From Candidatus Uhrbacteria bacterium (lineage in GTDB: Bacteria; Patescibacteriota; Patescibacteriia; UBA9934; GWF2-40-263): a DNA stretch of 64,000 bases. The stretch spans positions 4,672 to 68,671 of the forward strand of contig JACRJU010000015.1 in assembly GCA_016219925.1 (NCBI GenBank). The letters run 5' to 3'. The first letter of the stretch is position 1. The number at the start of each line of letters is the position of its first letter. The notes beneath the pieces are model-generated. The model saw only the letters and a list, made by a program, of their open reading frames with translations. It was not told the DNA's origin and did no database searches. The position numbers and the translations under genes are program-made. Below, one piece after another: positions 18,263 through 55,843 of the stretch.

Positions 18263-18282
18263 AGACCTCTATAAACGCGTTC

Positions 18283-20853: not shown

Positions 20854-20887
20854 ATAAAATAAGCGACAAAAATGTATCACTCTTATA

Positions 20888-25550: not shown

Positions 25551-26146
25551 AGCCTTCAGCCTTTTTTGCAAAACTGCGCGTTTCACATCGCGCGCATGAA
25601 CAGCTTCGTCGCGAAGTGATCGCGCTGTCCAATCAGGCTCTTTCAACCAGCAAGCGCGCCATTTTTGCGATGCATCGCGATGATCGCGCAGGGGCGTCAA
25701 CTCTTCTGGCTCAAGCCGATGCATTGTTCAAGAAGGCTGAACGATTATTTAAGCGAGAAGCGGCGCTGGCCCACGAGGGGGCGTATCGCGCGGCGCTTGA
25801 GGAGTATGCGGAGGCTTTGTTGTTCTTACAGTATTTGGAAAAAGGGAAGCTCGGGCCGATTGATCCGCGCGCCATGGAATCGCTCGTGTATCTGGCGGGT
25901 CTGTGTGATACGACCGGCGAGATTGTCCGCTATACCTTAAGGCAAGTGACGCTTGGCAACATACGCCTCGTGACGCTCGCGCGTGACACCGTCGAGATGG
26001 TCATCGAATTTTTGCTCGATTTGGATGCCACGGGCTATCTGCGCACCAAAGCCGATCAAGCCAAAGGAAATCTCAAACGTTTGGAAGAAATTCTCTATGA
26101 CCTTTCTTTGCGACAATCCGTGGATCTTCCATCGCGACGAAGTTGA
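25547..26146 (+). CDS. Translin-family protein
   Basis: YLAGLCDTTGEIVRY matches the translin/TRAX motif YLxGvxDLTGELxR. The C-terminal LEEILYDLSLR matches translin VEEVVYDLSIR. Confidence 0.7.
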   Translation: MKPSAFFAKLRVSHRAHEQLRREVIALSNQALSTSKRAIFAMHRDDRAGASTLLAQADALFKKAERLFKREAALAHEGAYRAALEEYAEALLFLQYLEKGKLGPIDPRAMESLVYLAGLCDTTGEIVRYTLRQVTLGNIRLVTLARDTVEMVIEFLLDLDATGYLRTKADQAKGNLKRLEEILYDLSLRQSVDLPSRRS

Positions 26147-26162
26147 TCTGTTGGAAGAGGAG

Positions 26163-26726
26163 ATGGACGAGATTTTTCGTCGTCATCGCGCAGAACCGAA
26201 TCATAGCGGTTCGCAAATGGAAGATCGTGTGCTGAAGGAGCAAACCGATTTGGAAGAGATAGCCGAAGCCGAGTTGACGCTCCAGATCGGCCCCGAGTAC
26301 TTATTATCGCCGCACGATCAGGAGTTCGAGACGGATGATATCGTTGAGCGACCCATTTTGAATACCCTTAAAGAACAGGCCGCGCGCGATGGGTTGTATC
26401 AGCGTGTGTACCTGTGGGCCAAGGACGTCTTTCACTTCGCGCATCAGGCTTATCAAGTTTCCGGTCGTACAGACGAAGGGCTCTTTCGTACCTATCTTAC
26501 AGTGAAGATGATCCCGATCAAACTCATGGCGATATCTACAGAGAGTCGAATTGGAGATGCGATAAGCGATCAGATCGCCAAAAAAGAATTCGCCTTGTGC
26601 CTGACGTATTTTGAACGAGCACTTGACGGACTCAAACGCCGTTCTCTTTTGGCTGACGAAGAGGCGATTATGCTTTATAAGCAAGGCAAGATGCTTGTGC
26701 AAGCGATCAAAACACGAGGCCTATGA
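26163..26726 (+). CDS. Hypothetical protein, possible divergent translin/TRAX-like partner
   Basis: The motif YQVSGRTDEGLFRTYL weakly resembles the translin motif. It sits immediately downstream of the translin gene. Start is either 26163 or 26097. Confidence 0.35.
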   Translation: MDEIFRRHRAEPNHSGSQMEDRVLKEQTDLEEIAEAELTLQIGPEYLLSPHDQEFETDDIVERPILNTLKEQAARDGLYQRVYLWAKDVFHFAHQAYQVSGRTDEGLFRTYLTVKMIPIKLMAISTESRIGDAISDQIAKKEFALCLTYFERALDGLKRRSLLADEEAIMLYKQGKMLVQAIKTRGL

Positions 26727-27385
26727 ATCGACCTTCCGTCTGCGCCATCATTCCCGCTTTTAATGAAGAGACGACGATCGCCCAAGTCGTCCGTCCGCTT
26801 GTGACGTCTGAAGGGATTGATGAAGTCGTGGTCGTGTCGGATGGTTCAACCGATGAGACAGCACATCTGGCTCGTCGGGAAGGGGCGACGGTTTTGGAAC
26901 TGCCACGTCGCGGAGGAAAAGGCGAAGCGATGCATTTCGGCGTTGAACAGACGACGGCGCAGGTGCTCGCTTTTTTTGATGCGGATTTGCGCGGGCTCAC
27001 GCATGAGCATGTCGAGCGGTTGTTGCTTCCCGTGGTGAATGGAGGGCGATGGATGAATGTTGGTATTCGCGACCGCGGCCGTCTTTGGACATGGGTTTCC
27101 CACCACCTCCCTTTGATTAGCGGGGAGCGAGCTATGCGTCGCGAGGTTTTTGAAGGCATTCCAGCCGAGTATTTGCATGGGTTTATGGTTGAAACTTCTC
27201 TCAATTACTATTGCCGGACGCATCGTCTACGCTATGGGGCCGTGGATTTGCCCGGCTTGTCCATTCGGCGCAAGTACGAAAAAGTGTCCTGGCCCCGGGC
27301 TGTGGTACAATATACTCGTATGTTTTGGCAGGTTGGCGAAGCGATGCTCGTTGTACGCCTCGCTCGTTTATTAAAGAGATTTTAA
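26723..27385 (+). CDS. Glycosyltransferase family 2
   Basis: The N-terminus is CAIIPAFNEE.TI..V…VVVSDGSTDET, a GT2 DXD-type motif. Confidence 0.7.
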   Translation: MNRPSVCAIIPAFNEETTIAQVVRPLVTSEGIDEVVVVSDGSTDETAHLARREGATVLELPRRGGKGEAMHFGVEQTTAQVLAFFDADLRGLTHEHVERLLLPVVNGGRWMNVGIRDRGRLWTWVSHHLPLISGERAMRREVFEGIPAEYLHGFMVETSLNYYCRTHRLRYGAVDLPGLSIRRKYEKVSWPRAVVQYTRMFWQVGEAMLVVRLARLLKRF

Positions 27386-27388
27386 TTT

Positions 27389-28870
27389 ATGGCGCCCCTC
27401 GATCTCTCTTCCATAGAAAATTTCAAAGATGCGATGGTGACCGTGATGGGTCTGGGTCGTTTCAAGCAGGGGAGCGGCGTTGGCGCGGCCAAATGGCTCA
27501 TGCGCCACGGCGCACAGATCGTCATCACAGATCTCAAAACCGAAGCTGAACTGCAAGAGTCGGTTGATGAAATCACCAAGTGGTATACCCAGTATAAAAA
27601 GGAATACAAAGATCGGCCGATTTATGCGCCGGTATTTGTATTGGGTGAGCACCACGAGGATGATTTCACCAACGTAGATTTGGTGATGCAAAATCCCGGT
27701 GTGGTGCGCGAATCCGAGTTCGTTCAGCTCGCGAAGCAAAACGGCATTCATGTGGAAAGCGACGTTTCGCTGTTTTTTCGTTACTGCCCATTTCTGATTT
27801 ATAGCGTGACCGGCACGCGCGGCAAGTCCACCACAACCGCCCTGCTCGGCGAAATGTTGCGCAACCTTCACCCCAAAGCCGTCATCGCGGGAAACATCAC
27901 ACGCTCGCCGCTTGAGGACTTGGATTGGTTGCTTGAGGAAAAAGCGCCGGTGCCGATCGTTCTTGAATTGTCCTCCTGGCTTTTGGAAAGTTTGGAAGGG
28001 CTGGGCATCGGCCCGCAAATCGCTCTGCTCACCAATGCCTACAAAGATCATCTCGACCGATACAAATCTTTTGAACATTACCTGTGGGCGAAGGAACTTA
28101 TTTTCAAAGAACAAAAACCAGATCAATACGCCCTATTGAATGCCGATCAGGAGTTGATGGATGAGATCGCTTCGCGCATTGTCTCCAAGAATGTTTATTG
28201 GTTTTCTTCTAAACCGCTTCCATCGGGCAAGGAAGGCGTGTTTAGCGATGGCGACGAGCTGAAGCGCTCGATTGGCGGCGAGGTGAAAACCTTCGCTCAT
28301 GTCCATGACCTCACGACGCTTAAGGGGGAGCACAACGTGATGAATGCGCTTGGCGCTTCACTGGCCGCGCATCTAGGCGGGGTTTCTGATCAACAGATTC
28401 ATCAGGCTTTGAAAGCTTTTGTTGGCCTTCCGGGGCGTCAGCAGATTTTGGGTGAGCTTGAAGGCGTGGTTTATGTAAACGATACCACCGCGACATCGCC
28501 CGAAGGGGTGATAGCCGCGCTCAAGCGATTCGGCAACGGTGGGAACATCATTTTGATCGCCGGAGGATCTTCCAAAGGCTTGGGGTTTGATGAGATGGCG
28601 GCGCTGGTGCGAATGCAATGCAAATATGTTGTGCTTTTCGAAGGAACCGCGCTTGATGACCTTTCGCGCGCGATTGGCCCGGATGTTCCGATGGCGCGTG
28701 CGGGGTCCATGGCTGATGCCATGAAATCAGCAGGCGCTCAAGCCAAACTTGGCGATGTGATCTTGCTTTCGCCGGGCACGTCCAGTTTCGGCATCTTCAA
28801 AAACGAATTCGATCGCGGCGAACAATTTAATGCGGCGTTTGAGCAAATCAAAAAATCCGCACAATCGTAG
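27389..28870 (+). CDS. murD: UDP-N-acetylmuramoylalanine--D-glutamate ligase
   Basis: The sequence VMGLGRFKQGSGVGAAKWL, the P-loop VTGTRGKSTTTALLGEML, and a Mur ligase C-terminal domain fit MurD. Confidence 0.9.
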   Translation: MAPLDLSSIENFKDAMVTVMGLGRFKQGSGVGAAKWLMRHGAQIVITDLKTEAELQESVDEITKWYTQYKKEYKDRPIYAPVFVLGEHHEDDFTNVDLVMQNPGVVRESEFVQLAKQNGIHVESDVSLFFRYCPFLIYSVTGTRGKSTTTALLGEMLRNLHPKAVIAGNITRSPLEDLDWLLEEKAPVPIVLELSSWLLESLEGLGIGPQIALLTNAYKDHLDRYKSFEHYLWAKELIFKEQKPDQYALLNADQELMDEIASRIVSKNVYWFSSKPLPSGKEGVFSDGDELKRSIGGEVKTFAHVHDLTTLKGEHNVMNALGASLAAHLGGVSDQQIHQALKAFVGLPGRQQILGELEGVVYVNDTTATSPEGVIAALKRFGNGGNIILIAGGSSKGLGFDEMAALVRMQCKYVVLFEGTALDDLSRAIGPDVPMARAGSMADAMKSAGAQAKLGDVILLSPGTSSFGIFKNEFDRGEQFNAAFEQIKKSAQS

Positions 28871-30169
28871 GTGATGACTATGCCTATGGTGCTATCCCTT
28901 ATTCGCCGCTTCGTGCCAAAGCCCGTGTTCGGCGCCTACCACTTTGTCCTCGCGTTGATCGCTGCCGCCGTGTATCGACATCCTTCCGAGAAATTGATCG
29001 TTGTGGGGGTTACGGGTACAAATGGAAAATCTTCGACCGTGCAATTCATCGGCCGGATTCTTGAACATACGGGCAGACGTGTGGGGTGGACGACGACGGT
29101 CGGATTCAAAATCGCTGAGCGCGAATGGGTGAACGATAAAAAAATGACGATGCTCGGCCGGTTTCAAACCCAGCGTTTCTTGCGCCAGATGGTCGATGCT
29201 GGTTGCGCAGTGGCGATCATCGAGACGTCTTCGCAAGGAATTGCGCAATCGCGACACGTTGGCATTCATTACGATATAGCCGTTTTTACAAATTTGACTC
29301 CAGAACACATCGAAGCCCACGGTGGCTTCGAAGCTTATAAAGCGGCCAAGGGAAAATTGTTTGCGGCGTTGGCACGAGCGAAAGAGAAAACGATCCATGG
29401 AACACCGGTGAAAAAAGCGAGCGTGGTGAATGTTCTGGATGAGCATGCCGCGTATGTGCTTTCGTTTGGAGCCGGGCAGGCGTATCCCTTTGGCAAGCAG
29501 GCGACGGATGTGGTGATGAACAAAAACGGCACAACGTTTTCGATCGCAGATACCGCGTTTCATTTCAAACCAATCGGACGGTTTAATTTTGAAAATGTCC
29601 TTGCCGCGATCACCACCTGTCAGGCTCTTGGATTGACCCTTCGTGATATCGCTGATGGGGTTTCACGTTTAGAGCCCGTTCCGGGACGACTGGAGGTTAT
29701 TGACGAGGGTCAGTCTTTTACGGTCATTGTGGATTACGCGCCAGAACCCGCGGCGTTGAATGCCACCTATGAGGCGCTTGCGCTTATCGGAGGACGACGC
29801 TTAATCCATGTACTTGGTTCAACAGGAGGCGGGCGTGATGTGGCGCGACGCCGTGTGTTGGGCCAGATGGCCGCAGGGCACGCCGCGATTGTGATCGTCA
29901 CCAATGAAGATCCATATGATGATGACCCCAGCGCGATCATTGAAGATGTTGCGGCCGGCGCGCGTGAACATGGCAAGCGTGATGGGATCGATTTGTTTGC
30001 TCTTTTGGATCGTCAAGAAGCCGTGAACAAAGCCATGGCCATTGCGCAGGAAGGCGACATCGTGCTGATGACCGGAAAGGGAAGTGAACCGGTGATGGCC
30101 GTCGCCCACGGCCGAAAAATTCCTTGGGATGATCGAGCCGCCGCGCGGAAAGCCTTGCACCACTTATGA
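28871..30169 (+). CDS. murE: Mur ligase family protein, MurE-like (short N-terminal domain)
   Basis: It has VGVTGTNGKSST, then IIETSSQGIAQSRHVG and FTNLTPEHIEAHG, as in MurE. It is about 50 aa shorter at the N-terminus than typical MurE. Confidence 0.7.
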   Translation: MMTMPMVLSLIRRFVPKPVFGAYHFVLALIAAAVYRHPSEKLIVVGVTGTNGKSSTVQFIGRILEHTGRRVGWTTTVGFKIAEREWVNDKKMTMLGRFQTQRFLRQMVDAGCAVAIIETSSQGIAQSRHVGIHYDIAVFTNLTPEHIEAHGGFEAYKAAKGKLFAALARAKEKTIHGTPVKKASVVNVLDEHAAYVLSFGAGQAYPFGKQATDVVMNKNGTTFSIADTAFHFKPIGRFNFENVLAAITTCQALGLTLRDIADGVSRLEPVPGRLEVIDEGQSFTVIVDYAPEPAALNATYEALALIGGRRLIHVLGSTGGGRDVARRRVLGQMAAGHAAIVIVTNEDPYDDDPSAIIEDVAAGAREHGKRDGIDLFALLDRQEAVNKAMAIAQEGDIVLMTGKGSEPVMAVAHGRKIPWDDRAAARKALHHL

Positions 30170-36312: not shown

Positions 36313-36381
36313 CCCACCCCGGGCTTTTTTGTTACACTTTCTTTACCCTCTTTACGTTCTGAATGATAAGTCATTGTCGAA

Positions 36382-36444
36382 GTGATCCTTTACCGGAGGG
36401 AACAACGGCGACGAGTCTGTTGGCCCGGAGGCAGAGGATCACTC
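36382..36444 (-). repeat. Conserved-core hairpin element, copy 4 (reverse orientation)
   Basis: The reverse complement of 36395-36428 is CCGGGCCAACAGACTCGTCGCCGTTGTTCCCTCC, the same core as copies 1-3. It is flanked by the complementary arms GTGATCCT/AGGATCAC. Confidence 0.7.
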
Positions 36445-36460
36445 CGAATATTCAATCATT

Positions 36461-41592: not shown

Positions 41593-41665
41593 GGTACGAT
41601 GATATGAACACAGGTGAATCACGGGAGGAACCCTATGGATTCCCCTGTGTTCATATCATCGTACC
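41593..41665 (+). repeat. 22-bp perfect inverted repeat (hairpin) just downstream of uvrA
   Basis: GGTACGATGATATGAACACAGG at 41593-41614 pairs with CCTGTGTTCATATCATCGTACC at 41644-41665. The loop is 29 nt. Confidence 0.8.
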
Positions 41666-41784
41666 AACGGATTGTTTGCCGGTCATCTTCACGTTGTCCA
41701 TGTTGATGAAAAGAGATCAGGGCATGTCACAAATCCGTCTCATGAATGGTGATGATGTAAGAGCGGGATCTGTCCGTGTACGCC

Positions 41785-41935
41785 GGCCAGTGGGGGCCCG
41801 GCTGGCCATTTCCCCATCCGTGCTCGCAAGCTGCGCGCGGATGGGAGCCCCATGGCCGCCTGCCCACTAGCCGTGACGGCTTATTCATTCGCAATGCGAC
41901 TTGATTGCCCGAGCTTGTCGAGGGCTGCTCTTGCA
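41785..41935 (+). repeat. GC-rich ~150-bp element A (long imperfect hairpin); inverted copy of 47821-47961
   Basis: The reverse complement of 47821-47961 matches this segment with only a few mismatches. Internally it contains CCAGTGGGG…CCCACT and CCATCCG…CGGATGG stems. Confidence 0.8.
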
Positions 41936-42095
41936 ATGCGGCGTAGTCCATGCCTCCTCGATATAATCAATCATTCCTCACCGAACGAGCGGGGGGCGTC
42001 GGTCAGGTCTGTACTGATCTGTAATTTGTATCTACCGCAAGCGCAAATAAAAACAGGCGAGAGTGTACCCACCTGTTTCTTCACCTGGTTCTTTG

Positions 42096-42678: not shown

Positions 42679-42860
42679 TATAGTCATCACATTATGAAAC
42701 GGGACTCGATAAACGGTAAAAATTTCACAGGACTTGTTTTTCACTGATAAAAATACTCTCGGTATCTACGGATACCGTTCGCATTTTTATCAGCTCCAAA
42801 ACGGCGTTCTGTAAAATTTTTCCTCGTTTCTAAGTCCCGTTTCATAATGTGATGACTATA
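42679..42860 (+). repeat. 182-bp near-perfect palindromic element (28-bp terminal inverted repeats plus nested 11-bp and 7-bp inverted repeats); MITE-like
   Basis: The terminal repeats TATAGTCATCACATTATGAAACGGGACT at 42679-42706 and AGTCCCGTTTCATAATGTGATGACTATA at 42833-42860 are perfect. Nested inside are CTGATAAAAAT/ATTTTTATCAG and CGGTATC-TAC-GGATACCG. The arms between the repeats are also largely complementary. Confidence 0.8.
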
Positions 42861-42908: not shown

Positions 42909-44237
42909 ATGATCCCAGGATATATCGCAATAAGGAACAAAACGTTGCCGGATGAACCCGGAGTCTATTTTTATTATGACGTCGCGGGCAAGCTCCTCTA
43001 TGTAGGGAAAGCCACTTCTTTGCGCTCACGCGTCGGTTCCTATTTCACCAAAGCGCATGAAAATCGTATTGCCGATATGGTGGCACAGATCCAGCGGATC
43101 GATTATATTGTCACGCCGACCGTGATTGAAGCTTTGGTACTCGAGGCCAATCAAATCAAAGCCAAGAAACCCAAATACAATATTCTCCAACGCGACGACA
43201 AGAGTTTTTTGTATTTGGTGATCACGAACGAGCCGTATCCAAAACCCGTTTTGATGCGTGGGCATGAGCTCGAGCGATTGGGAATTGATCCCTTTAGAAC
43301 CGCCCTGACGGCGCAAGCCAAGAGAAAATTTTTGCGCGTATTTGGCCCGTATCCCTCTGGGGCTTCGCTTAAAAAAGCCCTCGATCTCATCCGTCGAGCC
43401 ATCCCGTGGAGCGATTGCAATCCACCATCAGTGACCGGCCGCCACCGCCCATGCTTCAACGTTCATCTCGAAAAATGTCCGGGCGTCTGTACGGGAGCCA
43501 TCACCCAAAAAGCGTATCGTGCCATCATTCGCCAGCTCGTTCTTTTTTTTGATGGAAAGAAAAAGGTTTTGATGCGCGCGATGGAGCGTAATATGAAGCG
43601 TGCAGCTGATGCGTTGAAATTCGAAGAGGCGGCCGCGATACGCCGACACGTATATGCTCTTCAACATATTCAAGACGTGGCGCTGATTTCGCGTGAGGAT
43701 ATTGAGTTGCCGTATGCGACATCAGTGTCGGACGAGGCTGTTGATCTTGATGGACGAATTGAAGCTTACGACATCAGCCATATCTCCGGGACATCCGCCG
43801 TTGGCTCAATGATTGTTTTTGAAGAGGGGAAGCCAACCAAGTCGCTCTATCGTAAGTTCAAAATTAAAACAGTGATCGGTCCAGACGATGTGGGGATGCT
43901 TGAAGAAATGATGCGTCGTCGATTGGCGCGAACAAAAATCGCGCCGAAGGCCTGGCCCTTGCCGCAGATCATGGTGATTGATGGCGGGGAGGGGCAGGTG
44001 CGGCGCGTGCAGGATGTCATGAATGAATTGGGAATCCAGGTTCCTCTCATGGGGATCGCAAAAGGATTTGATCGTAAACAGGATCGTTTGGTGTTTGATC
44101 ATTCAAATCTCGAGCTTCTGCGAGTGGCGAAGCGTGGCAAAGAGTTGTTTCAGTGGGCGCGCGACGAGGCGCATCGGTTTGCGGTTTCGTATCACCGATC
44201 TTTGCGTTTAAAGCGTTTTTTTGGCGCGAAGCGTTGA
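42909..44237 (+). CDS. uvrC: UvrC-like excinuclease (GIY-YIG N-terminal domain; 442 aa, lacks the usual C-terminal extension)
   Basis: PGVYFYYDVAGKLLYVGKATSLRSRVGSYF is the canonical GIY-YIG start of UvrC. The Cys-containing region (CPGVC) and the RNase H-like UvrC region follow. Confidence 0.75.
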   Translation: MIPGYIAIRNKTLPDEPGVYFYYDVAGKLLYVGKATSLRSRVGSYFTKAHENRIADMVAQIQRIDYIVTPTVIEALVLEANQIKAKKPKYNILQRDDKSFLYLVITNEPYPKPVLMRGHELERLGIDPFRTALTAQAKRKFLRVFGPYPSGASLKKALDLIRRAIPWSDCNPPSVTGRHRPCFNVHLEKCPGVCTGAITQKAYRAIIRQLVLFFDGKKKVLMRAMERNMKRAADALKFEEAAAIRRHVYALQHIQDVALISREDIELPYATSVSDEAVDLDGRIEAYDISHISGTSAVGSMIVFEEGKPTKSLYRKFKIKTVIGPDDVGMLEEMMRRRLARTKIAPKAWPLPQIMVIDGGEGQVRRVQDVMNELGIQVPLMGIAKGFDRKQDRLVFDHSNLELLRVAKRGKELFQWARDEAHRFAVSYHRSLRLKRFFGAKR

Positions 44238-44732
44238 AAGCTGGCTGACTTGGAAACCAATCATGTCGGAAGGGAGATCGTTGAGAGGGTGAAACATCCC
44301 CTCGACGGGTTCAAACAGGAGACTGACTTCCATCACATGGAACAGATGCAGAGTGCGGCCACAGGGATGATCGTCATCGAACTGCATAGCGAGATATCGC
44401 GGTTGTGCCGGAAGCGGGCTTACACCGAGTTCCTGTTCCCATCGCGTGGTGATGCGTTCTATAGTGTCGGTAATGCGCGCGATCGTTCCGGGGAAATGCC
44501 ATAAGTGTGGCCATGCCGGATCATTCGGCTCGCGGCGTGTGAGCAAAATTTCTTTGCCGGAAGGCGTTTGGCGAATAATGAGCAGTTCAAAAGCGGCGTA
44601 CGGCACCACATGGGTCAGTTCGCGAAAGGCGTAAAGGGGAAGCTGACCTTCTCGTTTTGCGAAGGTTGCGAGATAATGCAGTTGTCGCTTGCACAACGGC
44701 TCAAGGAGTTTTAGAAAAATCCATTCCATCAT
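44208..44732 (-). CDS. NUDIX-fold protein with degenerate Nudix box
   Basis: The pattern ILLTRRE…W.FPGT…IERITTRWEQELGV resembles the NUDIX fold (W.lPGG…RE..EE.G) but has substitutions at the catalytic positions. Confidence 0.35.
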   Translation of the reverse strand: MMEWIFLKLLEPLCKRQLHYLATFAKREGQLPLYAFRELTHVVPYAAFELLIIRQTPSGKEILLTRREPNDPAWPHLWHFPGTIARITDTIERITTRWEQELGVSPLPAQPRYLAMQFDDDHPCGRTLHLFHVMEVSLLFEPVEGMFHPLNDLPSDMIGFQVSQLSTLRAKKTL

Positions 44733-44984
44733 ATGAAAAGACAAGGGTACCATCGTCTCGCTGAAATTTTGGGTTGGTATGGCGTGGCGGCCGTGTTAGT
44801 GGCCTATGCCGCGATCAGCCTCGGTTGGCTTTCCCGTGAGCATACATTCTATCATATCCTCAATGCCACAGGTGGAGCGGGAATTTTAATCGATGCGTGG
44901 TTCGATCGCAATTATCAACCCGTGGTGTTGAATGCGATTTGGGTGATTGTGGCGTTGATCGCGCTTGCTCAAATTGTTTTGTAA
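44733..44984 (+). CDS. Small hypothetical membrane protein (two TM helices)
   Basis: It is an 83-aa ORF with two hydrophobic helices, followed by a terminator at 45005-45025. Confidence 0.4.
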   Translation: MKRQGYHRLAEILGWYGVAAVLVAYAAISLGWLSREHTFYHILNATGGAGILIDAWFDRNYQPVVLNAIWVIVALIALAQIVL

Positions 44985-45077: not shown

Positions 45078-45140
45078 TTGACGGGTGTTTAAGGGTGGAA
45101 TAAAATGGATGCAGGTGGAACAAAGTGGGGATTGGAACAG
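45078..45140 (+). promoter_or_regulatory. mraZ promoter (TTGACG, 17 bp, TAAAAT) with downstream GTGGAA/GTGGGG direct repeats (candidate MraZ operator)
   Basis: TTGACG is at 45078-45083 and TAAAAT at 45101-45106. GTGG(A/G)(A/G) repeats start at 45095, 45115, 45125 and 45133, spaced about 10 or 20 bp apart. Confidence 0.5.
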
Positions 45141-45200
45141 TCGTTCCGATGCTCACTTTATTTTCTAAAAAGTGACCTTCCACCTCCCACTCCGCGCCGT

Positions 45201-45632
45201 ATGTTTATTGGCGAGTACAAGCACACGCTGGACGACAAGGGCCGCATCGCGGTTCCGAAGAAGTTCCGCAAACAGCTTTCGCGCGGGGCGGTGGTGACCA
45301 GAGGTCTCGACACGTCCCTCTTCCTGTTCCCCAAGGAGGAGTGGGACAAGCTTGCGGAGCGTTTAGCAAGTTTGCCCCTGGGGCAGTCCAACAGCCGTGC
45401 CTTCGCCCGACTCATGCTTGCGGGTGCTATGGACATTGCATTGGACAAACAGGGGAGGGTCGTGTTGCCGGAATACCTCCGAGAGTACGCCGGGATGAGC
45501 AAGAACATCATTCTGGCTGGTCTGTACAATCGTCTCGAGTTGTGGGATGAGGCGAAATGGGAAACATACAAGAAACGTGTGGAGAGCGATGCTGATAGCG
45601 TCGCGGAGAAATTGGGGGAGTTGGGATTTTAG
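45201..45632 (+). CDS. mraZ: Transcriptional regulator MraZ
   Basis: MFIGEYKHTLDDKGRIAVPKKFR…LDKQGRVVLP shows the duplicated MraZ/SpoVT-AbrB-like motifs. The gene is visibly GC-rich. Confidence 0.85.
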   Translation: MFIGEYKHTLDDKGRIAVPKKFRKQLSRGAVVTRGLDTSLFLFPKEEWDKLAERLASLPLGQSNSRAFARLMLAGAMDIALDKQGRVVLPEYLREYAGMSKNIILAGLYNRLELWDEAKWETYKKRVESDADSVAEKLGELGF

Positions 45633-45718
45633 CTAAAGGGGTAGCGGGCTTTGGGGCGACTTCTATCGCCATAAGGCCGGCTACCCAACCTTCGGCAGTC
45701 GCCGAAGCATAAGGGGGA

Positions 45719-46618
45719 GTGGGACCCAATATGTCAACAACACATATTCCAGTCCTCCTTCAAGAGGTGCTTACGTACCTCCAACCGGAGCCGAACCAAT
45801 CTTTCATTGACGGTACCGTGGGGCAGGGGGGACACGCTGAGGCTTTGCTTGAGCGCGTTCTCCCTGAGGTCCGTCAGACCGTTAGATATCTTGCGATCGA
45901 TCGCGATGCAAGCAATCTTGCGGTCGCGAAAGATCGGCTTTCTCGTTTCGGCGCGTCAGTCGTGTCTGTGCATGACCGTTACGCCAACGTTAAAGCGTGC
46001 GCGTATGCTCATCACTTTACGGCCGTCGATGGAATCCTTCTGGATCTTGGGTTCAGCTCTATTCATGTAGATGATCCAAGTCGCGGTTTCTCCTTTCGGT
46101 CTGATGGACCGTTAGATATGCGTTATGACGTGTCTGGTGGCCTGACGGCTGCGGACATCGTCAATACGTGGAGTGAAGATGAGCTGGCACGCGCGTTTCG
46201 ACAATACGGGGAAGAGACCAAGGCGCGAGACGTCGCAAAAGCGATTATCGCGCGACGCAAAAAGCGTCCATTTGAACGGACGCTTGAGCTTTCCGAGTGT
46301 GTGCAGAAAGTGGTCCCGAAGCGAGGACAGATTCATCCGGCGACGCGCGTGTTTCAAGCCTTGCGCATTGCCGTCAACGATGAGTTGGGCGAGCTCACAC
46401 GAGCCTTGCCGGATCTCGTCGATCTGCTTCGCCCCGGCGGCCGGCTGGCGATCATCACCTTCCATTCGTTGGAAGACCGCATCGTCAAGACGTTTATGAA
46501 AGAGCGTCTTGATCTGCGGGTGCTGACGCGCCATGCGATCAAGCCATCGATCATGGAAGTGCGGGAAAATCCCCGCGCCCGCAGCGCCAAATTGCGCGTT
46601 GCGGAAAAAATTTCTTAA
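45719..46618 (+). CDS. rsmH: 16S rRNA (cytosine1402-N4)-methyltransferase RsmH (MraW)
   Basis: It has HIPVLLQEVL, DGTVGQGGHAEALL, and DLGFSS. Confidence 0.9.
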   Translation: MGPNMSTTHIPVLLQEVLTYLQPEPNQSFIDGTVGQGGHAEALLERVLPEVRQTVRYLAIDRDASNLAVAKDRLSRFGASVVSVHDRYANVKACAYAHHFTAVDGILLDLGFSSIHVDDPSRGFSFRSDGPLDMRYDVSGGLTAADIVNTWSEDELARAFRQYGEETKARDVAKAIIARRKKRPFERTLELSECVQKVVPKRGQIHPATRVFQALRIAVNDELGELTRALPDLVDLLRPGGRLAIITFHSLEDRIVKTFMKERLDLRVLTRHAIKPSIMEVRENPRARSAKLRVAEKIS

Positions 46619-46644
46619 TTCTCGATCACATACGTCCCCACCGT

Positions 46645-46995
46645 ATGGCTCTGTCTCAAACTTTTTCTCCTTCGTTTGTTTTGCATCGTCAACACTCGGG
46701 TTGGCGAATGCCCTCGCGCGCCTGGTTCAATGTCGCTTCGTTGATCGTTTTGATTTCGTTGTGTATCGGTTATGTGGTGCAAGTGAATCGCACCGTATCG
46801 CAGGGTTATCAAATGCGTGAGCTGGAAACGCGCATTAACGATTTAACGATTACAAATCAAAAAATGGAAGTGGCCACCCAGCAGGCCCAGTCGCTCGATA
46901 ATATCGCGCGCGCGACAAAGATGATCGGACTGGTCAAGGCCGAGCGACCGGTGTATGTGCAAGCCGGTGCGCCTTCGTACGCCATGGCAAAATAG
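46645..46995 (+). CDS. FtsL-like cell division protein (single TM plus coiled coil)
   Basis: It follows rsmH in the canonical position, with one TM helix and then a heptad-like region (RELETRINDLTITNQKMEVATQQAQSL). Confidence 0.45.
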   Translation: MALSQTFSPSFVLHRQHSGWRMPSRAWFNVASLIVLISLCIGYVVQVNRTVSQGYQMRELETRINDLTITNQKMEVATQQAQSLDNIARATKMIGLVKAERPVYVQAGAPSYAMAK

Positions 46996-47118
46996 ATAAA
47001 ACGAAAAAGGAGAGCGCCGAGCGCTCTTTTTTGGTTTATGAAGAGTGTCATCCTGAAGGAGTTTCAAGCGACTGAAGGATCTCGAGGTAAATGACCGTAA
47101 GTTACGATTGCGATCACG

Positions 47119-47193
47119 ATTTATCCTGCCTTCGGGCCAACGGACTCATCGCCGTTGTTCCCTCCGGCAGGATAGATCGTGATCGGTTCGTGC
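47119..47193 (+). repeat. Conserved-core hairpin element, copy 2
   Basis: The outer arms CGATCACGATTTATCCTGCC and GGCAGGATAGATCGTGATCG are complementary with one U·G. The core is TTCGGGCCAACGGACTCATCGCCGTTGTTCCCTCCG. Confidence 0.8.
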
Positions 47194-47267
47194 CTGCAGA
47201 CACGGGCCTGGTTGTAGTGTTCTCAAAACGGACGTGTTATACTTTTATCATCGAGATTCAAGGAGGT

Positions 47268-47819
47268 ATGCTTTCAACGGTTTTTATTGACGCTGGTCAA
47301 GCGACGCGCGTATTCGCACAGATCAACTGGCTTCAGCCCAGTTGGGATTTGTTTATCGTGCTCTTTTTTATTATCGCGTCGTTGCTCTACGGTATTTCAC
47401 TCGGTCGCGATCGCATCATTGTCATTCTGGTTTCGATCTACATGGCGTTGGCGATCGTCAATTATATTCCGTTCATCAGCGCTTTCACGGCTGACATTTC
47501 CGTCAACGACGCCTTTGCGTTGCGTATTTCCGTCTTCCTTGGCATCTTCATTCTCCTTTTCTTTTTTCTTTCGCACTCCGCGCTTCTGCGCACTCTTGGT
47601 CATGCCGCGGCTCAAGGCCCACTCTGGCAGGTGATGATTTTTTCGTTTCTTCATGTGGGACTTCTCATCAGTGTAACCTTGTCTTTTTTTCCGGCCAGTC
47701 TTTCAAGTGTGCTTTCACCACTTACACAAGCGTTTTTTACGAGCGATATTGCGCGCGCGGCATGGGTCTCATTGCCGGTGTTAGCGATGGTGGTGATCGG
47801 TCGCGGGTACGACGATTAA
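47268..47819 (+). CDS. Hypothetical polytopic membrane protein
   Basis: ATG 47268 is preceded by AGGAGG. There are about five TM helices and no recognised family. Confidence 0.4.
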   Translation: MLSTVFIDAGQATRVFAQINWLQPSWDLFIVLFFIIASLLYGISLGRDRIIVILVSIYMALAIVNYIPFISAFTADISVNDAFALRISVFLGIFILLFFFLSHSALLRTLGHAAAQGPLWQVMIFSFLHVGLLISVTLSFFPASLSSVLSPLTQAFFTSDIARAAWVSLPVLAMVVIGRGYDD

Positions 47820-47820
47820 A

Positions 47821-47961
47821 GCCCTCGACAAGCTCGGGCAATAAAGTCGCATTGCGAATGGATAAGTAGTCACGGCCAGTGGGGAGGCGGCCATGGGGCC
47901 CCCATCCGCGCGCAGCTTGCGAGCACGGATGGGGAAATGGCCAGCCGGGCCCCCACTGGCC
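47821..47961 (-). repeat. GC-rich ~150-bp element B (inverted copy of 41785-41935)
   Basis: It is the reverse complement of element A. It is followed by TCTGTACTGATCTGAAATCTGTATCT, a direct copy of the motif at 42008-42033. Confidence 0.8.
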
Positions 47962-48066
47962 GTATATCCATCATCTGTCTATCTGTACTGATCTGAAATC
48001 TGTATCTTCTGTAATCTGTACTTCCGAGCTTGTCTCGGTCTCTTTTTTTGTTATACTTACCTGCGT

Positions 48067-49710
48067 ATGCTTCAGCTTTACAATACGCTCACGCACAAAA
48101 AAGAACCGTTTGAACCTCTCAAAAAAGGGCGGGTCGGGATTTATGCCTGCGGTCCAACGGTTTACTGGTTTGCCCACCTTGGAAACATGCGGGCGTTTTT
48201 GTTTGCAGACCTTTTGCGCCGCGTGCTGAGTGCGAACGATCTGGCGGTAAAGTTCGTCATGAATATTACGGATGTCGGCCACCTTACGGACGATGCCGAC
48301 GAAGGGGAAGATAAGATGCTTGTTTCGCAACGTGCAGCGTTTATTTGTCCTAAGTGCAAGAAGTTCCACATTAGTGGATTGATATTGAAAAAAAATCAAA
48401 CAGAGGATAATCGAATTTTTAAAAATACGACTTTAGAAAGCCAATATGTGATATGTCAGAACAAGAAATGTAATGAAAAGATTTTTTTCAATTCCGAAAA
48501 CCTAGCTTTACATCCGATGCTTAGTGAATTGGCTCGTTTTTATGAAAAACAGTTTAAGATGGATATTAAACAGTTCAACATTATACCCGCCACAGAATAT
48601 CCGCGTGCCACAGATAATATTAAGGTACAGATTCAAATGATTAAAGATATAGAAAAGAATGGTTTTACATATAAGACGACAGATGGGATCTATTTTAATA
48701 CTTCAAAGCTTCATGATTATGGAATTCTTTCAGGTCAAAAAAGTAATGAAAAAGAAGGTGGCATCCGCGTGGCAATGAAAGAAAAAAAAAATGCAACAGA
48801 TTTTGCATTATGGAAGTTTAGTTATCCAAATGGTATTAGCAGAGAAGATTACATTTCAAACATGAAGAGTGGGTTAACCTTAGTAAATACCAACTGGAAA
48901 GGAAAGAAATTAATTTTGCGAGATCCTGAAATGGAATGGGATGCGCCGTGGGGGACGGGGTTTCCCGGTTGGCATATCGAATGTTCGGCCATGTCGAAAA
49001 AATATCTCGGGTTCCCGTTTGATATTCACACCGGCGGCGTGGATCACATCGCCGTTCACCATGAAAACGAACTTGCGCAATCCATCGGATGTTGCGGCAT
49101 TTATGAGGCGCGGTTTTGGATGCACAGTGAATTTTTGACGGTTGATGGGGGCAAGATGAGCAAGTCGCTTGGCAATTTGTTCACGCTTCAGGATCTTATC
49201 AACAGAGGCTATGATCCACTCGCGTTTCGTTATCTCACCCTTAGTGCACACTATCGCACCAAGCTCAACTTCACCTGGAAGGCACTTACCGCATCGCAAA
49301 ATGCGCTTCATCGCCTGTACGATACCGTGCGCGATTGGGACACACCGAAGATTGGGTGCTCGGAGTATGAACAGCGATTTGACGCGGCGTTTGAAGATGA
49401 TTTGAATGCTCCGCAAGCGCTCGCGGTGATGTGGGAGATGATTGAAGACGGGGCATTGCCGACTTCGGGTAAAGCTCAGTCTATGTTGAAGTTTGATCGC
49501 GTGCTCGGTCTTGGACTTGAAGCGTATATCGCAACCCCCCTTTTTATCCCAGAAGAGGTACGTGCGCTGATCGCCGAGCGCGAAATCGCGCGTGACGCAA
49601 AAGATTGGTCAGCGTCTGATCGACTGCGCGAACAGATCGAACAGCTCGGGTTCACTATTGAAGATACCCCTAAGGAAACAAAAGTTCGTCAAAAAAGATT
49701 ATCGCTATGA
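48067..49710 (+). CDS. cysS: Cysteinyl-tRNA synthetase with an inserted AT-rich zinc-ribbon segment
   Basis: CGPTVYWFAHLGN is the HIGH-type motif. Also present are GFPGWHIECSAM, the Zn site, and KMSKSLGN. An extra ~60 aa inserted after DKMLVSQRAAF contains CPKCKK…CQNKKCNEK. Confidence 0.9.
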   Translation: MLQLYNTLTHKKEPFEPLKKGRVGIYACGPTVYWFAHLGNMRAFLFADLLRRVLSANDLAVKFVMNITDVGHLTDDADEGEDKMLVSQRAAFICPKCKKFHISGLILKKNQTEDNRIFKNTTLESQYVICQNKKCNEKIFFNSENLALHPMLSELARFYEKQFKMDIKQFNIIPATEYPRATDNIKVQIQMIKDIEKNGFTYKTTDGIYFNTSKLHDYGILSGQKSNEKEGGIRVAMKEKKNATDFALWKFSYPNGISREDYISNMKSGLTLVNTNWKGKKLILRDPEMEWDAPWGTGFPGWHIECSAMSKKYLGFPFDIHTGGVDHIAVHHENELAQSIGCCGIYEARFWMHSEFLTVDGGKMSKSLGNLFTLQDLINRGYDPLAFRYLTLSAHYRTKLNFTWKALTASQNALHRLYDTVRDWDTPKIGCSEYEQRFDAAFEDDLNAPQALAVMWEMIEDGALPTSGKAQSMLKFDRVLGLGLEAYIATPLFIPEEVRALIAEREIARDAKDWSASDRLREQIEQLGFTIEDTPKETKVRQKRLSL

Positions 49711-51892: not shown

Positions 51893-53241
51893 CGAAGCAA
51901 AATCGTGGCCAAACCGAGGAACGTCAGGAATCCCAGGACGTCTGTCGCGGTGGTGATGAACACCGTGGCTGAAGAGGCTGGATCTTTTCCGAGACGTTTC
52001 ATAATGAGCGGGACGAGTGTTCCAAAAAATCCGGCGACAAGAAGATTTGTCATCATGGCGATGCTTAAGACGAGGGCTAAACGCAGATCATGATTAAACA
52101 AGATGACAATGGCCGCTACAATCAGACCGTTGATCACCCCGTTGATGAGACCGGCTAAAAGTTCACGAGAAATCGTCGGCCACGCCGTTTTCAAATCGAT
52201 TTGATTGAGCGTGATGCCGCGCACCAAAACGGCGAGCGTTTGCGTTCCGGCGTTGCCGCCCATGCCTGCAACGATTGGCATATAGACGGCCAGCAAAACA
52301 TATTTTGAAATGGTTTCATCAAACAAGCTCACCGTGAACGAAGCGAGAAACGCCGTGGCAAGGTTGATGATGAGCCATTTGTAACGCGAGGATACCTTCG
52401 CCCATGTGGAATCTGCGACCGTTTCCTCCTGACGCACGCCGGCCAAATGGTAAAGCGAAGCGGATTCGTGTTTAGAGATGCGACTGAGCAAGTCATCGGA
52501 ATAAATAACCCCGATCACGTTTCCGGTTTTACCTCGTACGACCACGCGCGCGTGCGGATGCTGGCGGAAGACTTCCAGGACTTCTGCATGGTTGGCGTCA
52601 TGGGCGATGGAGGGGACGTGTCGGATGAGTCGTTCGATCGGCTCGCTTGGACGAGCGATGGCCAAGGCGTGGCCGGGAATGTAGCCGATGATTTTGTTCG
52701 CGCGCATCGCGATGACGGTTGGGATGCGGCCCGTGCGCGATTCATGCTCTTTGATTTTGCGCGCTACGGCTTGAACCGTTTCACCCGTTTCGATTTGGAT
52801 ATAGTCCGCACTCATGAGTCCCGCGGCCGTTTGCGGATCAAACGACGACAAGAGCTCGACGCTATTTTTCAGCTCGCGCGTGAGGCGCGAGATCAAACGG
52901 TGTCGTCGGAGTTTTGGGAATTGTCTTAAGAGGTCCGTTGTTTGATCGGGATCCAACTCATTGAGCGCTTCAATGATGACTTCATCTTTGATTTTTCTTG
53001 CGATGTCATTGAGGGTTTGTTTACCGAGGTTGCACAAGAGCACCGCTCGAATTTCCGGCGCAAGCGAAAGGAAGCGTTTGACACGCTCCTTTTTGTTGAA
53101 TTGCATTTGGTGCACGAGTTCACGCACGTCGCGCGCGGAAAATTTTTTTGTTGCCATACCTCCGTTGGCTTCTATTGTACACCGAGCTTTCGCTTCAAAC
53201 AAAAAAGACCTCCCATTGGATGAAGACCGATTTGTGACCAT
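51889..53241 (-). CDS. mgtE: Magnesium transporter MgtE
   Basis: It has the N-terminal MgtE_N domain, tandem CBS domains, and a C-terminal five-TM MgtE domain (GNAGTQ, PLIMKRLGKDPA). Confidence 0.85.
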   Translation of the reverse strand: MVTNRSSSNGRSFLFEAKARCTIEANGGMATKKFSARDVRELVHQMQFNKKERVKRFLSLAPEIRAVLLCNLGKQTLNDIARKIKDEVIIEALNELDPDQTTDLLRQFPKLRRHRLISRLTRELKNSVELLSSFDPQTAAGLMSADYIQIETGETVQAVARKIKEHESRTGRIPTVIAMRANKIIGYIPGHALAIARPSEPIERLIRHVPSIAHDANHAEVLEVFRQHPHARVVVRGKTGNVIGVIYSDDLLSRISKHESASLYHLAGVRQEETVADSTWAKVSSRYKWLIINLATAFLASFTVSLFDETISKYVLLAVYMPIVAGMGGNAGTQTLAVLVRGITLNQIDLKTAWPTISRELLAGLINGVINGLIVAAIVILFNHDLRLALVLSIAMMTNLLVAGFFGTLVPLIMKRLGKDPASSATVFITTATDVLGFLTFLGLATILLR

Positions 53242-53300
53242 ATCTCCAGGCCAACGGACTCATCGTCGTTGTTCCCTCCGATAGGGTCACAAATCTGTCT
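53224..53300 (+). repeat. Conserved-core hairpin element, copy 3 (overlaps the mgtE start codon)
   Basis: The arms AGACCGATTTGTGACCATATC and GATAGGGTCACAAATCTGTCT have two mismatches. The core is TCCAGGCCAACGGACTCATCGTCGTTGTTCCCTCCG. The mgtE ATG (complement of 53239-53241) lies inside the 5' arm. Confidence 0.75.
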
Positions 53301-53334
53301 CCTGTGCCTTGAACGGTCTTGTGATACGAATGAT

Positions 53335-53409
53335 TGGTCGGGCTGGCGGGACTTGAACCCGCGGCCTCTTCGTCCCGAACGAAGCGCGCTACCACTGCGC
53401 CACAGCCCG
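53335..53409 (-). tRNA. tRNA-Pro (anticodon CGG), CCA encoded
   Basis: The reverse complement has acceptor CGGGCTG/CAGCCCG, D-arm GCGCAGTGGTAGCGC, anticodon loop TTCGGGA, and a T-arm containing TTCAAGT. Confidence 0.8.
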
Positions 53410-53442
53410 ACGAATCATTCCTATTTTTTCTTAAACAATGAG

Positions 53443-54129: not shown

Positions 54130-55749
54130 TTATTGTCCGCTCGCTTTTTTTCGTTTGAGCGATCCGATGATTCCCATTGGGATGGTTCGCTTAACCGTCG
54201 CCATCACCTCGTCGAGGCTTTGTGCAGTGGGTTCCACGTCTCCTGGGCTGACGCCACCGTTTTGAATCGTGTTTGCGGCATCGTCGTAATACCACATTGG
54301 CACCTCTTTCATGTGTCCGGTGGCCTGCAGTTTTTGATGATCCACTGGCAGTTCAAGATGTTTTTTCAGGGCCTCGCCCAGTCGCAGAGCTTCAATCACC
54401 GGCCGCAGATCAATACTGCGCTCCTGTCGTGTGATGATATTGGTGTGTCCGGTTGATCGGCGTTGGACGATGAGATCCATCCGTTTTGCCGCGCGCAAAA
54501 ATCCCGGTAGGGCGATATTGTCGCTTTGCACAACAGCCGCTTTCAAATCGGCCGAACCCTGCTTGAGCTTGAGCACTTCTCCTTTGCCAGACGCTTGCAG
54601 GTCCTCCCATTCCTTGGGAAGCTCTTCTGCGCGTTTTTGCTCTTCGACGATATGGTAGTGCAATAAAGGGAGGATAAAATCCAGAACCTTCATCGGGTTA
54701 TCAGAAAAGGCGCGGTTAAGATTCATCATCAACCCAGACAACCCGAACGCGCGGTCGAGCGGATCGTCGCTGATTGTGCCTTTGCCTTCCAGATCGTCGC
54801 GTTTGGCCCAGGCCAGAATTTTTTGAAACGCTTTTTGATTTGCGAGCCCGAGATATTCCGCAACGAGGCTCGAAGCCGTCGCATCGCGCCGGCCGTTTGC
54901 TTTGTTGACGAGATGGTGATCGAACATTCCGCCGAGGTCAACGGTGAGTGTGCCTTTTTTTAACAGATTCTCCGCGGTCTCGCCTTCAGGCAGGGCCGGC
55001 CAAAAGATCACTTGAGCCTTGTCGATACCCGGAAATTTTTTTGTTCCAAAACGCGCGAGCAAGTACGCGGCGGTTGCGGTATCAGCTTGGATTTTTGGAA
55101 ATAACACCATCGTGTGTACAGGGATGCCCGCATCGTCAACAAATTTTTCCTGCGCGTCATCCCAGAAGTATCGTTTGAAATCGTTGTCCGACTTGCCGAC
55201 GAGCACCAGTTTGCCATCGAGAACAAGCGGAGGATCGAGCGGGGATTGTTTTGGCTTTTCATCAATAAACGGATCGTCGCCGCCGATCGAAACGTGAAAA
55301 TCTTTGTTTTCTTTGAGAAGACCGGAAGACAAAAGTTGTTGCCTGATGGTGACAAGCGGATTTCCCGAGTTCGCGTCTTTATCCCCCGAGCTTGCGACAG
55401 TTCCGTCGAATGACGGGGTCGAGGGGGCACGCACCGTTTTATCCCCCGAGCTTGTCGAGGGGGCAGAGGCGGACTGTGGGGTGAGATAGGTGTAAGAGCC
55501 CATTTGGCCGTAACCGTCGAATGTAAGAGTCGCGCGCGAAAGCGGCAGGTTTACGGTTTGCGAAAGAGTTTTCAGTTGAGCGGTCAGGGCTTCAACATCA
55601 ACGGAATCAAAATAACCGACCGTCAGATGATGTTCAGGTCGCTTTATGCGTTTTTCAATGCCATTTTTTCTCCAGGAGACGACCTGCGGATGCTGTTCGA
55701 TCTGTTCAAACGGCAGGTCGTATCCAATCCACGCGGATAAAAGGATCAT
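54130..55749 (-). CDS. Two-domain protein: N-terminal 2H-phosphoesterase-like (LigT-like) domain with an inserted Ser/Pro-rich 20-aa tandem repeat, plus an uncharacterised ~350-aa C-terminal domain
   Basis: Two H-x-T/S-x motifs are present (HHLTVGYF and FHVSIGG). The DNA has a 60-bp tandem duplication: TTTATCCCCCGAGCTTG at 55378 and again at 55438. The C-terminal domain has an FDHH motif but not the canonical DHH spacing. Start at MILLSAW. Confidence 0.5.
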   Translation of the reverse strand: MILLSAWIGYDLPFEQIEQHPQVVSWRKNGIEKRIKRPEHHLTVGYFDSVDVEALTAQLKTLSQTVNLPLSRATLTFDGYGQMGSYTYLTPQSASAPSTSSGDKTVRAPSTPSFDGTVASSGDKDANSGNPLVTIRQQLLSSGLLKENKDFHVSIGGDDPFIDEKPKQSPLDPPLVLDGKLVLVGKSDNDFKRYFWDDAQEKFVDDAGIPVHTMVLFPKIQADTATAAYLLARFGTKKFPGIDKAQVIFWPALPEGETAENLLKKGTLTVDLGGMFDHHLVNKANGRRDATASSLVAEYLGLANQKAFQKILAWAKRDDLEGKGTISDDPLDRAFGLSGLMMNLNRAFSDNPMKVLDFILPLLHYHIVEEQKRAEELPKEWEDLQASGKGEVLKLKQGSADLKAAVVQSDNIALPGFLRAAKRMDLIVQRRSTGHTNIITRQERSIDLRPVIEALRLGEALKKHLELPVDHQKLQATGHMKEVPMWYYDDAANTIQNGGVSPGDVEPTAQSLDEVMATVKRTIPMGIIGSLKRKKASGQ

Positions 55750-55843
55750 AGTACTTCTCATTATACAAAAAGAAGAGCCCCGCGCGAAGTCGAGTTCAGC
55801 CGTGATATGCACGGGACTCTTCTTCTCACGGGGCGAGATGGGT

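Follow-up and report, generated by a model that had tools for sequence, protein, structure and literature searches.

Inverted GC-rich hairpins around a division-gene block of Candidatus Uhrbacteria: probable copies of a dispersed hairpin family with a conserved apex

Introduction

The DNA under study is a stretch of 64,000 nt (hereafter the window) from a Candidatus Uhrbacteria bacterium (assembly GCA_016219925.1, contig JACRJU010000015.1, positions 4,672 to 68,671), a member of the Patescibacteria, or candidate phyla radiation (CPR). Two GC-rich palindromic segments stand in it in inverted orientation, about 6 kb apart, and bracket a block with mraZ, rsmH and an ftsL-like gene. The question is whether this block is an invertible switch of the division cluster, as a sequence-only reading had proposed, or whether the repeats belong to a structured element that occurs twice, or are the scar of a mobile element, the fallback of the same reading.

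The pair is probably two copies of a non-autonomous hairpin element that resembles repetitive extragenic palindromes (REPs) and MITEs (miniature transposable elements with inverted repeats) and belongs to a previously uncatalogued, cross-phylum family. On this reading the pair arose in the window as a side effect of two insertions and is no dedicated switch; copy 2 would probably be transcribed within the 3' untranslated region of a message that runs from mraZ to the membrane-protein gene, ahead of a terminator-like hairpin.

The inverted pair

The arms (41784-41926 and 47820-47962) were delimited by a repeat search. Each is 143 nt long; they are 95% complementary, with 5893 nt between them. 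Blastn of arm against arm gives 136/143 identical positions (E = 5e-62), which bears out their description as near-perfect reverse complements. All seven mismatches lie inside 41846-41905, and the two 143-nt repeats contain an identical run of 62 nt. No further full copy of the 143-nt unit is found in the window by blastn.

Each arm consists of a 90-nt GC-rich imperfect hairpin and a 53-nt non-palindromic tail (Table 1). The hairpin, likewise recognised at the outset, is predicted to be stable as DNA and as RNA. RNA folding of the arms gives -67 to -79 kcal/mol. Folded alone as DNA, the hairpin of copy 2 reaches -38.2/-35.3 kcal/mol (z -5.6/-4.7) and that of copy 1 -29.7/-30.3 kcal/mol (z -3.0/-2.7). 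Copy 2 is fully paired, with 30 Watson-Crick pairs and one G.U pair; copy 1 has 28 Watson-Crick pairs and two broken ones. Three of the seven differences between the copies are uncompensated, pair-breaking changes in the 3' arm of copy 1. A coding role of the 143-nt unit was rejected: a 74-aa open reading frame (ORF) across copy 1 is interrupted by a stop codon in copy 2.

Distribution of the hairpin family

A 24-nt piece of the hairpin tip leads to two intergenic hairpins in a metagenome-assembled genome (MAG) of Acidimicrobiia (70-73% GC). Their 35-nt tip is identical to that of the window copies. Their lower stems, CCGGTT/AACCGG and CCGAGC/GCTCGG against GGCCAT/ATGGCC in the window, are different yet complementary. 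The exact 23-nt apex, CCGTGCTCGCAAGCTGCGCGCGG, leads to 84 metagenome stretches with GC contents of 0.33-0.73. A single dataset, Ga0207140, holds more than 20 copies on 17 loci of 133 kb in total; its penicillin-binding protein PBP1C is nearest to Aquicella and Legionella proteins, so its host is taken to be a Legionellales bacterium. By exact match, the 23-nt apex is identical in at least three phyla (CPR/Patescibacteria, Actinomycetota and Pseudomonadota).

A covariance model (R1), built from 14 family copies, gives 98 matches in 580 kb. The four copies found by R1 alone, which lack the exact 23-mer, depart from it by just 1-3 nt; they show the apex free of the bias of collection by that 23-mer. 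Blastn of two family cores against 72,556 plasmids gives no match. A phage origin was considered and rejected, with no match in 50,697 phages and a sole viral-contig match that is another plain-stem copy. The apex was also considered as a copy or complement of some sequence universal to cells, an idea rejected since 5,426 Escherichia coli genomes contain no match. Literal sequence matches in the published literature yielded nothing relevant to the family.

Architecture and covariation

Most members share one architecture (class A). From 5' to 3' it consists of a variable outer stem P1, a 5' junction that is usually GGGTCCTGTC (GGGGGCCCGGCT in its place in the window copies), and the stems P2 and P3, which lead up to the apex; behind it come a 3' bulge rich in C, (G/A)CCCC, the second strand of P2, the 3' junction GCCACCC and the second strand of P1. 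The apex folds as CCGUGC/GCGCGG, followed by a UC bulge and by GCA/UGC closed by an AGC triloop.

In the stems, pairing is kept while sequence varies. Among 60 confident R1 matches, standard pairs occupy 91.4% of cells; shuffles give 73.1%, and controls with the partner columns shifted by 1-3 positions give 36-52%. Compensatory double changes occur at 20/32 pairs. The covariation score is 0.444, against 0.129, and 0/500 shuffles attain the former value.

In a minority of copies (class B) this apex tops stems of unrelated sequence; CCCAC..TAC and TTGCCGTA are the junctions of one subgroup. At L005 the class B copy (4430-4510), which has a perfect 16-bp stem and flanking GCGCCGAYCCA inverted repeats, follows a 5S rRNA gene (4628-4743, minus strand) by about 150 nt, at the end of an rrn operon. 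The same plain-stem architecture is seen at L036, L037 and L082.

Stems also diverge at short range. At L054 two members stand inverted, 40 nt apart (4864-4952, plus strand; 4993-5078, minus strand), with the same apex and junctions and with wholly different P1-P3 stems. In about 10 of the 60 copies, pairing runs 18-40 bp past the core, in sequence unique to each copy (examples in Table 1). Such copy-specific stems were considered as guide-like sequences; searches of viral contigs with three of the long arms returned no match, and the reading was dropped. In three Legionellales copies (L012, ~589; L059, ~3323; L072, ~5082) a further small hairpin, CCCCAGCTTAAAACATGCTGGGG, is inserted into the 3' half.

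Evidence for insertion

A relative, L088 (GCA_040960315.1), has a membrane protein 89% identical to that of the window, and its mraZ-rsmH-ftsL-membrane protein-cysS string is collinear with the window. The gap between the membrane-protein gene and cysS is 36 nt in L088 and 247 nt in the window. Because the gap is so much shorter there and the gene string is collinear, copy 2 is judged to be an insertion; the intergenic sequence of L088 is too diverged to define its exact boundaries. The loci of the relatives (L088-L091) contain no R1 match. The fallback of a repeated element or mobile-element scar thus stands, with a dispersed multi-copy family in several phyla and an empty site in the relative.

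Copies also lie within genes. The Legionellales PBP1C at L025 has 879 aa, against ~767 aa in every homologue, and its in-frame copy sits in an insert of ~115 aa in a variable linker; the insert is found in no homologue and holds CGTC-type REPs alongside the hairpin. Upstream of that hairpin, L025 8470-8620 contains GTTGCGAGGAAATAAAGCCYCGTC twice (CGTC-type REP-like) and TTGAYTCGAGTCACCCCA twice, all translated in frame. A further in-frame copy of the Legionellales genome, in the opposite orientation, lies within a 505-aa ORF at L059. Nested copies (L068, ~1000-1130; L004, ~2800-2950; L060/L076) have a complete core within a degenerate older copy (outer GGGTTCTGT ... CACCCGCGG). One genome carries two subfamilies with linked variants, CCCCGTC..CTCCG and CCCCATC..CTCAG.

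Spread of the element, present or past, would proceed through single-stranded DNA that folds into the hairpin and is recognised in trans; the enzyme responsible may be encoded elsewhere or may since have been lost. The apex and the junctions would be the recognition determinants, and the stems would need only to pair. The copy-unique long inverted flanks may have arisen from insertion into the centres of palindromes or, alternatively, from replication template switching at a stable hairpin (quasi-palindrome correction).

The element is taken to be non-autonomous. Among the ~50 ORFs of the window there is no transposase, integrase, recombinase, invertase or Y1_Tnp. A recurrent neighbour protein was considered as the mobiliser and rejected, as the largest cluster consists of spurious ORFs through the repeat and no genuine family recurs. 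No direct repeats flank the window copies, and no parent insertion sequence (IS) is found in the 580 kb of loci.

Several points weigh against a mobile element. The searches yielded no mobilising enzyme, no target-site duplication and no recent presence/absence polymorphism among strains, so that mobility is drawn from distribution alone. The stem divergence at L054 is not what recent copy-and-paste would predict. A near-invariant apex with covarying stems, across phyla of 33-73% GC, is what one would expect of purifying selection on a function, and conservation of the tip rather than of the ends is unusual for MITEs. The apex invariance is partly by construction, most members having been gathered with the exact 23-mer, and the covariation alignment was fitted to R1. 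The family is also rare, and the lack of matches in plasmids, phages and E. coli means that its dynamics are poorly sampled.

Structured RNA or bound DNA site

A functional structured RNA is the strongest of the rival explanations and is nevertheless unlikely. The hairpin would be a small RNA or an element of 3' untranslated regions (3' UTRs) acting through its conserved apex and internal loops; it might bind a protein, stabilise mRNA as a 3' hairpin or serve as a factor-dependent terminator, and copies would be kept because they are useful. The conserved apex and junctions on covarying stems agree with this, as do the many copies just downstream of genes or between convergent genes, the one plain-stem version after a 5S rRNA gene, and the stabilisation of upstream mRNA by REPs (PMC3733652). 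Copy 2 itself follows a stop codon and precedes a terminator-like hairpin (Table 1). Against an RNA role, the element shows no preferred strand: in unambiguous tandem gene contexts (crude gene calling) 12 copies share the orientation of the genes and 11 oppose it, and copies occur between divergent as well as convergent genes. G.U wobbles (41) and A.C mismatches (35), the latter being G.U when read on the opposite strand, are equally common in every lineage, so that neither strand is favoured. Some copies are in frame inside ORFs, no T-run follows the hairpin on either strand for the window copies, and copy 1 is decaying without compensation. Rfam at the gathering threshold, for the window and 10 loci, returns only tRNA, rRNA and RNase P; permissive Rfam scans of four copies return only miRNA-precursor matches of the generic long-hairpin kind, with scores far below the cut-offs. 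Because orientation is unbiased, G.U and A.C are about equally frequent and no Rfam family is matched, the constraint is taken to fall on the pairing of either strand alike, which would be expected of a DNA hairpin or cruciform.

That symmetry would also suit a domesticated DNA site, that is, a hairpin or cruciform bound by a conserved host protein (a topoisomerase, nucleoid protein, or replication or repair factor, as proposed for REPs and bacterial interspersed mosaic elements, BIMEs) and kept for chromosome function. Occurrence in either orientation, an apex conserved across phyla and BIME-like module mosaics in one intergenic region speak for it. It is nonetheless improbable. The site of a universal protein should be widespread, whereas the family is very patchy: a close relative has no copy in ~40 kb, E. 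coli, plasmids and phages have none, and the sampled loci hold anything between two copies (64 kb) and more than 20 (133 kb).

Inversion and assembly

An invertible segment, in which the 143-bp repeats would be the crossover sites that switch the 5.9-kb mraZ-rsmH-ftsL block, is very improbable, and the proposal from which this work started is not upheld. The repeats bound the block exactly, and their 95% identity includes a 62-nt identical run long enough for homologous recombination. However, neither an invertase nor a site-specific recombinase is found in the 64 kb. The repeats belong to a dispersed family as ordinary copies, and copy 1 is decayed. The right junction (membrane protein, cysS, on to FtsI-MurE) is collinear with the repeat-less relative, which makes the present orientation the ancestral one, and inversion would disrupt the conserved mraZ...cysS...ftsI string. 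Rare RecA-mediated homologous inversion between the 143-bp repeats is possible in principle.

A mis-join or chimeric duplication as the source of the pair can practically be dismissed even for a MAG contig, in which repeats are a classic source of mis-assembly, since the copies differ at seven positions and in their flanks, the same architecture occurs in dozens of independent assemblies, and the gene order on either side of copy 2 matches an independent relative.

Relation to known repeat elements

By analogy, the nearest described elements are the CGTC-tagged REPs and the Rickettsia palindromic elements (RPEs), with a much longer hairpin in the present family. Rickettsia RPE-4/-6, Neisseria dRS3 and the Coxiella REPs are placed in the superfamily of CGTC-tagged REPs (Di Nocera, De Gregorio & Rocco 2013; PMC3733652). 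Its members have an unpaired CGTC tag (variants TGTC and CCTC) right before the stem, a stem-loop and a CCA tail, and occur in several phyla. They have in-frame intragenic copies and no dedicated transposase, and some lie in palindromes never seen empty (PMC3733652).

The apex family agrees with these REPs in its occurrence in several phyla, in its convergent and tandem intergenic and in-frame intragenic sites (L025, L059), in the lack of an adjoining dedicated transposase and in the embedding of some copies in longer palindromes of which no empty version is found elsewhere. The 5' tag position reads TGTC or CGTC in 47/60 members (TGTC 36, CGTC 11, CATC 7, TGCC 3, TGTT 1), whereas both window copies read GGCT. 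In the position of the CCA tail, the 3' junction has GCC followed by A in 39/60; the T of GGGT in P1, however, is the pairing partner of this A, and the window copies have GCCT. The stems of CGTC-tagged REPs are 8-9 bp long and start with A/T, with loops of 4-5 nt and ~25-30 nt in total. Between the junctions the apex family has 53-61 nt (against ~21-23 nt), made up of two stems with an internal loop between them and the structured 23-nt apex, and its P2, of 6 bp, starts with GC in 45/60, unlike the A/T start. Its most conserved part is the apex and not the tag. Membership in the superfamily is not established; the family behaves as a REP or RPE does and is best seen as a separate variant with a long hairpin.

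Rickettsia palindromic elements of the RPE-1 type were reportedly described by Ogata et al. in 2000. They and the apex family are alike as selfish-looking palindromes of ~100-150 bp with long hairpins. RPEs are AT-rich and known only from Rickettsia; the apex family, GC-rich also where its host has 33-40% GC, occurs with an identical apex in three phyla or more.

REPINs (REP doublets forming hairpins) and their REP-associated tyrosine transposases (RAYTs) also offer long hairpins of inverted halves that are non-autonomous, dispersed and proposed to move as single-stranded DNA hairpins. The apex family differs in lacking the GTAG tag and in having no RAYT or Y1/HUH gene in the window or adjoining its copies. 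In REPINs the REP halves are conserved at the base of the hairpin and the tip is variable, the opposite of the apex family. REPINs are vertically inherited within a lineage, whereas the apex CCGTGCTCGCAAGCTGCGCGCGG is common to several phyla.

In Coxiella, the small form of QMITE2 (Wachter et al. 2018) resembles a REP: it is a hairpin whose palindromic tip measures 23 nt, and it has matches of 83-100 nt in other bacterial classes (PMC5896051). Compared by description only, QMITE2 and the apex family share a length of ~90-190 nt, a very stable predicted hairpin, dispersal, overlap with gene ends and in-frame insertions; neither direct target-site repeats nor IS-like terminal inverted repeats were identified in the apex family. 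With respect to MITE criteria, the whole element is a palindrome. As to a Coxiella QMITE2/Bradyrhizobium link, the search of the 72,556 plasmids, in principle with Coxiella and rhizobial replicons, was without match.

Integron attC sites are likewise imperfect palindromes (~60-140 nt) that function as a folded single strand and conserve structure over stem sequence. They have conserved boxes R''/R' at the base, a variable tip and cassette arrays by an integrase gene, none of which is true of the apex family. The pair also differs from an inverton or shufflon: no recombinase lies in the window and the orientation matches that of L088.

Other repeat modules of the window

Table 1. Positions of the hairpin copies and associated modules in the window, with family copies that have unique inverted flanks
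Feature	Position	Strand	Remarks
Hairpin module, copy 1	41784..41873	+, strand bearing CCGTGCTCGCAAGCTGCGCGCGG	R1 64.1 bits, E = 1.5e-9; partly decayed
23-nt apex, copy 1, CCGTGCTCGCAAGCTGCGCGCGG	41818..41840	+	exact pattern match
Tail, copy 1: spacer and small module TTGATTGCCCGAGCTTGTCGAGGGCT	41874..41926	+	shared with copy 2 only
AT-rich motif TCTGTACTGATCTGTAATTTGTATCT, degenerate ATCTGTA heptads, direct copy 1	42008..42033	+	
Tail, copy 2	47820..47872	-	begins at first base past membrane-protein stop codon
Hairpin module, copy 2	47873..47962	-, apex-top strand	R1 73.2 bits, E = 2.4e-11; intact
23-nt apex, copy 2	47906..47928	-	exact pattern match
Direct copy 2 of the AT-rich motif, an array of ~5 heptads (ATCTGTA / ATCTGAA)	47982..48022	+	
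Terminator-like hairpin CCGAGCTTGTCTCGG and T-run	48024..48057	+	overlaps promoter-like TTGTCT-16-TATACT
Near-perfect 25-40 bp unique inverted flanks (other loci)	L039 3325-3496; L064 2947-3106; L014 5488-5643; L016 2594-2745; L069 8209-8348		

The 53-nt tail is specific to this genome and is not present in the Acidimicrobiia or metagenome copies of the family. Its last ~26 nt recur twice in tandem at 55373-55461 (17/17 identical at 55445-55461); these repeats, TTTATCCCCCGAGCTTG..GTCGAGGGGGCA, lie in a 560-aa ORF (54130-55812, minus strand) without Pfam match. By this recurrence the tail end is a third small repeat module. The terminator-like hairpin CCGAGCTTGTCTCGG resembles the end of the tail.

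The 26-nt AT-rich motif had been reported in two direct copies, and the window contains exactly these two matches (42008-42033 and 47982-48007), with none expected by chance. The motif is direct and the hairpin units are inverted, which places it outside the mobile unit of the hairpin. The array is not in the 36-nt gap of L088. A TGTTATACTT box just before cysS is the sole part of that intergenic region in common with L088.

A second hairpin family has four copies in the window (12762-12838, 36377-36447, 47111-47185 and 53224-53300). Its arms are 18-21 nt long with exactly 35 nt between them and a conserved apex, TCCGGGCCAACGGACTYATCGCCGTTGTTCCYTCCG; they are common to two copies and unrelated in the other two. 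The third copy lies in the gap between ftsL and the membrane-protein gene, which is 272 nt long in the window and 68 nt in L088. The family has no Rfam match, is found in none of the 91 fetched loci, and the orthologous gap of the relative is empty. A half arm of it lies at 41726-41740, 44 nt upstream of copy 1. To judge from its four copies, a conserved apex on variable arms may be a general design in this genome. On account of the tail repeat, the terminator-like variant and the second-family half arm nearby, both intergenic regions are interpreted as BIME-like mosaics of small repeat modules.

Further palindromes were observed. One of ~180 nt (42679-42860) fills the gap between the cupredoxin and uvrC-like genes, with arms of 55 nt (82% complementary) and inner arms of 23 nt. 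A 73-nt hairpin (41593-41665), 29 nt past the uvrA stop codon, has 28-nt arms (96% complementary) and a 17-nt loop, and is unrelated to the apex CCGTGCTCGCAAGCTGCGCGCGG family. A 22-nt inverted repeat (53324-53345 / 53403-53424) brackets a tRNA gene (53338-53409), next to which a second-family hairpin is located.

Genes between and around the arms

The genes between the arms are those of a cupredoxin, a GIY-YIG/UvrC-type nuclease, MraZ (Pfam), RsmH, an FtsL-like ORF and a membrane protein. The list given earlier is largely borne out, save for the label NUDIX-like of the 181-aa ORF at 44208-44753, which is unconfirmed (no Pfam match at 1e-4). The GC anomaly ascribed to mraZ exists in direction and is slight (0.55-0.58 against a window mean of 0.51). 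The membrane-protein ORF (47091-47819) is over-extended: its 89%-identical orthologue aligns from Met-60, so the gene probably starts at ~47268 rather than at 47091, which leaves the 272-nt gap after ftsL.

The division and cell-wall cluster is split in this genome. At 17-30 kb (17207-30169) are mraY, ftsW, murG and two Mur ligases, at 45-47 kb (45105-46995) mraZ-rsmH-ftsL, and at 58-61 kb (58195-61253) ftsI with a Mur ligase; cysS and other genes are interposed, likewise in L088. The cysteinyl-tRNA synthetase encoded by cysS (48067-49710) has 547 aa, against ~457 aa in all 120 homologues listed. Its extra ~90 aa, with CxxC...CxxC motifs, come from a segment of 31-36% GC (48250-48900) in a genome of 51% GC, and because of this low GC content the segment looks like a foreign in-frame insertion.

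Implications

For annotation, the pair is to be entered as copies of a dispersed repeat and not as an inversion switch that governs the division cluster. Palindromic repeats (REPs, RPEs, MITEs) are usually lineage-specific and conserved at their ends; the apex CCGTGCTCGCAAGCTGCGCGCGG family is conserved at its tip and across phyla, and its copies can sit in frame within essential-type genes. The pattern implies a sequence-specific partner, enzyme or host factor, that is shared or transferred across phyla.

It is possible, and put forward tentatively, that the apex, carried on at least two unrelated architectures (class A and class B), is the recognition module of an undescribed, cross-phylum system of hairpin-specific mobilisation or DNA processing. 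Such a system might also grow the copy-unique inverted flanks around a stable tip. CGTC-type REPs have been without a known transposase since 2013; a family whose recognition module is so clearly delimited could help to approach that question. Reduced CPR genomes, as the window shows, are colonised by several hairpin families of this kind. The second family of the window suggests that the conserved-tip design is a general, so far unrecognised class of bacterial repeat.

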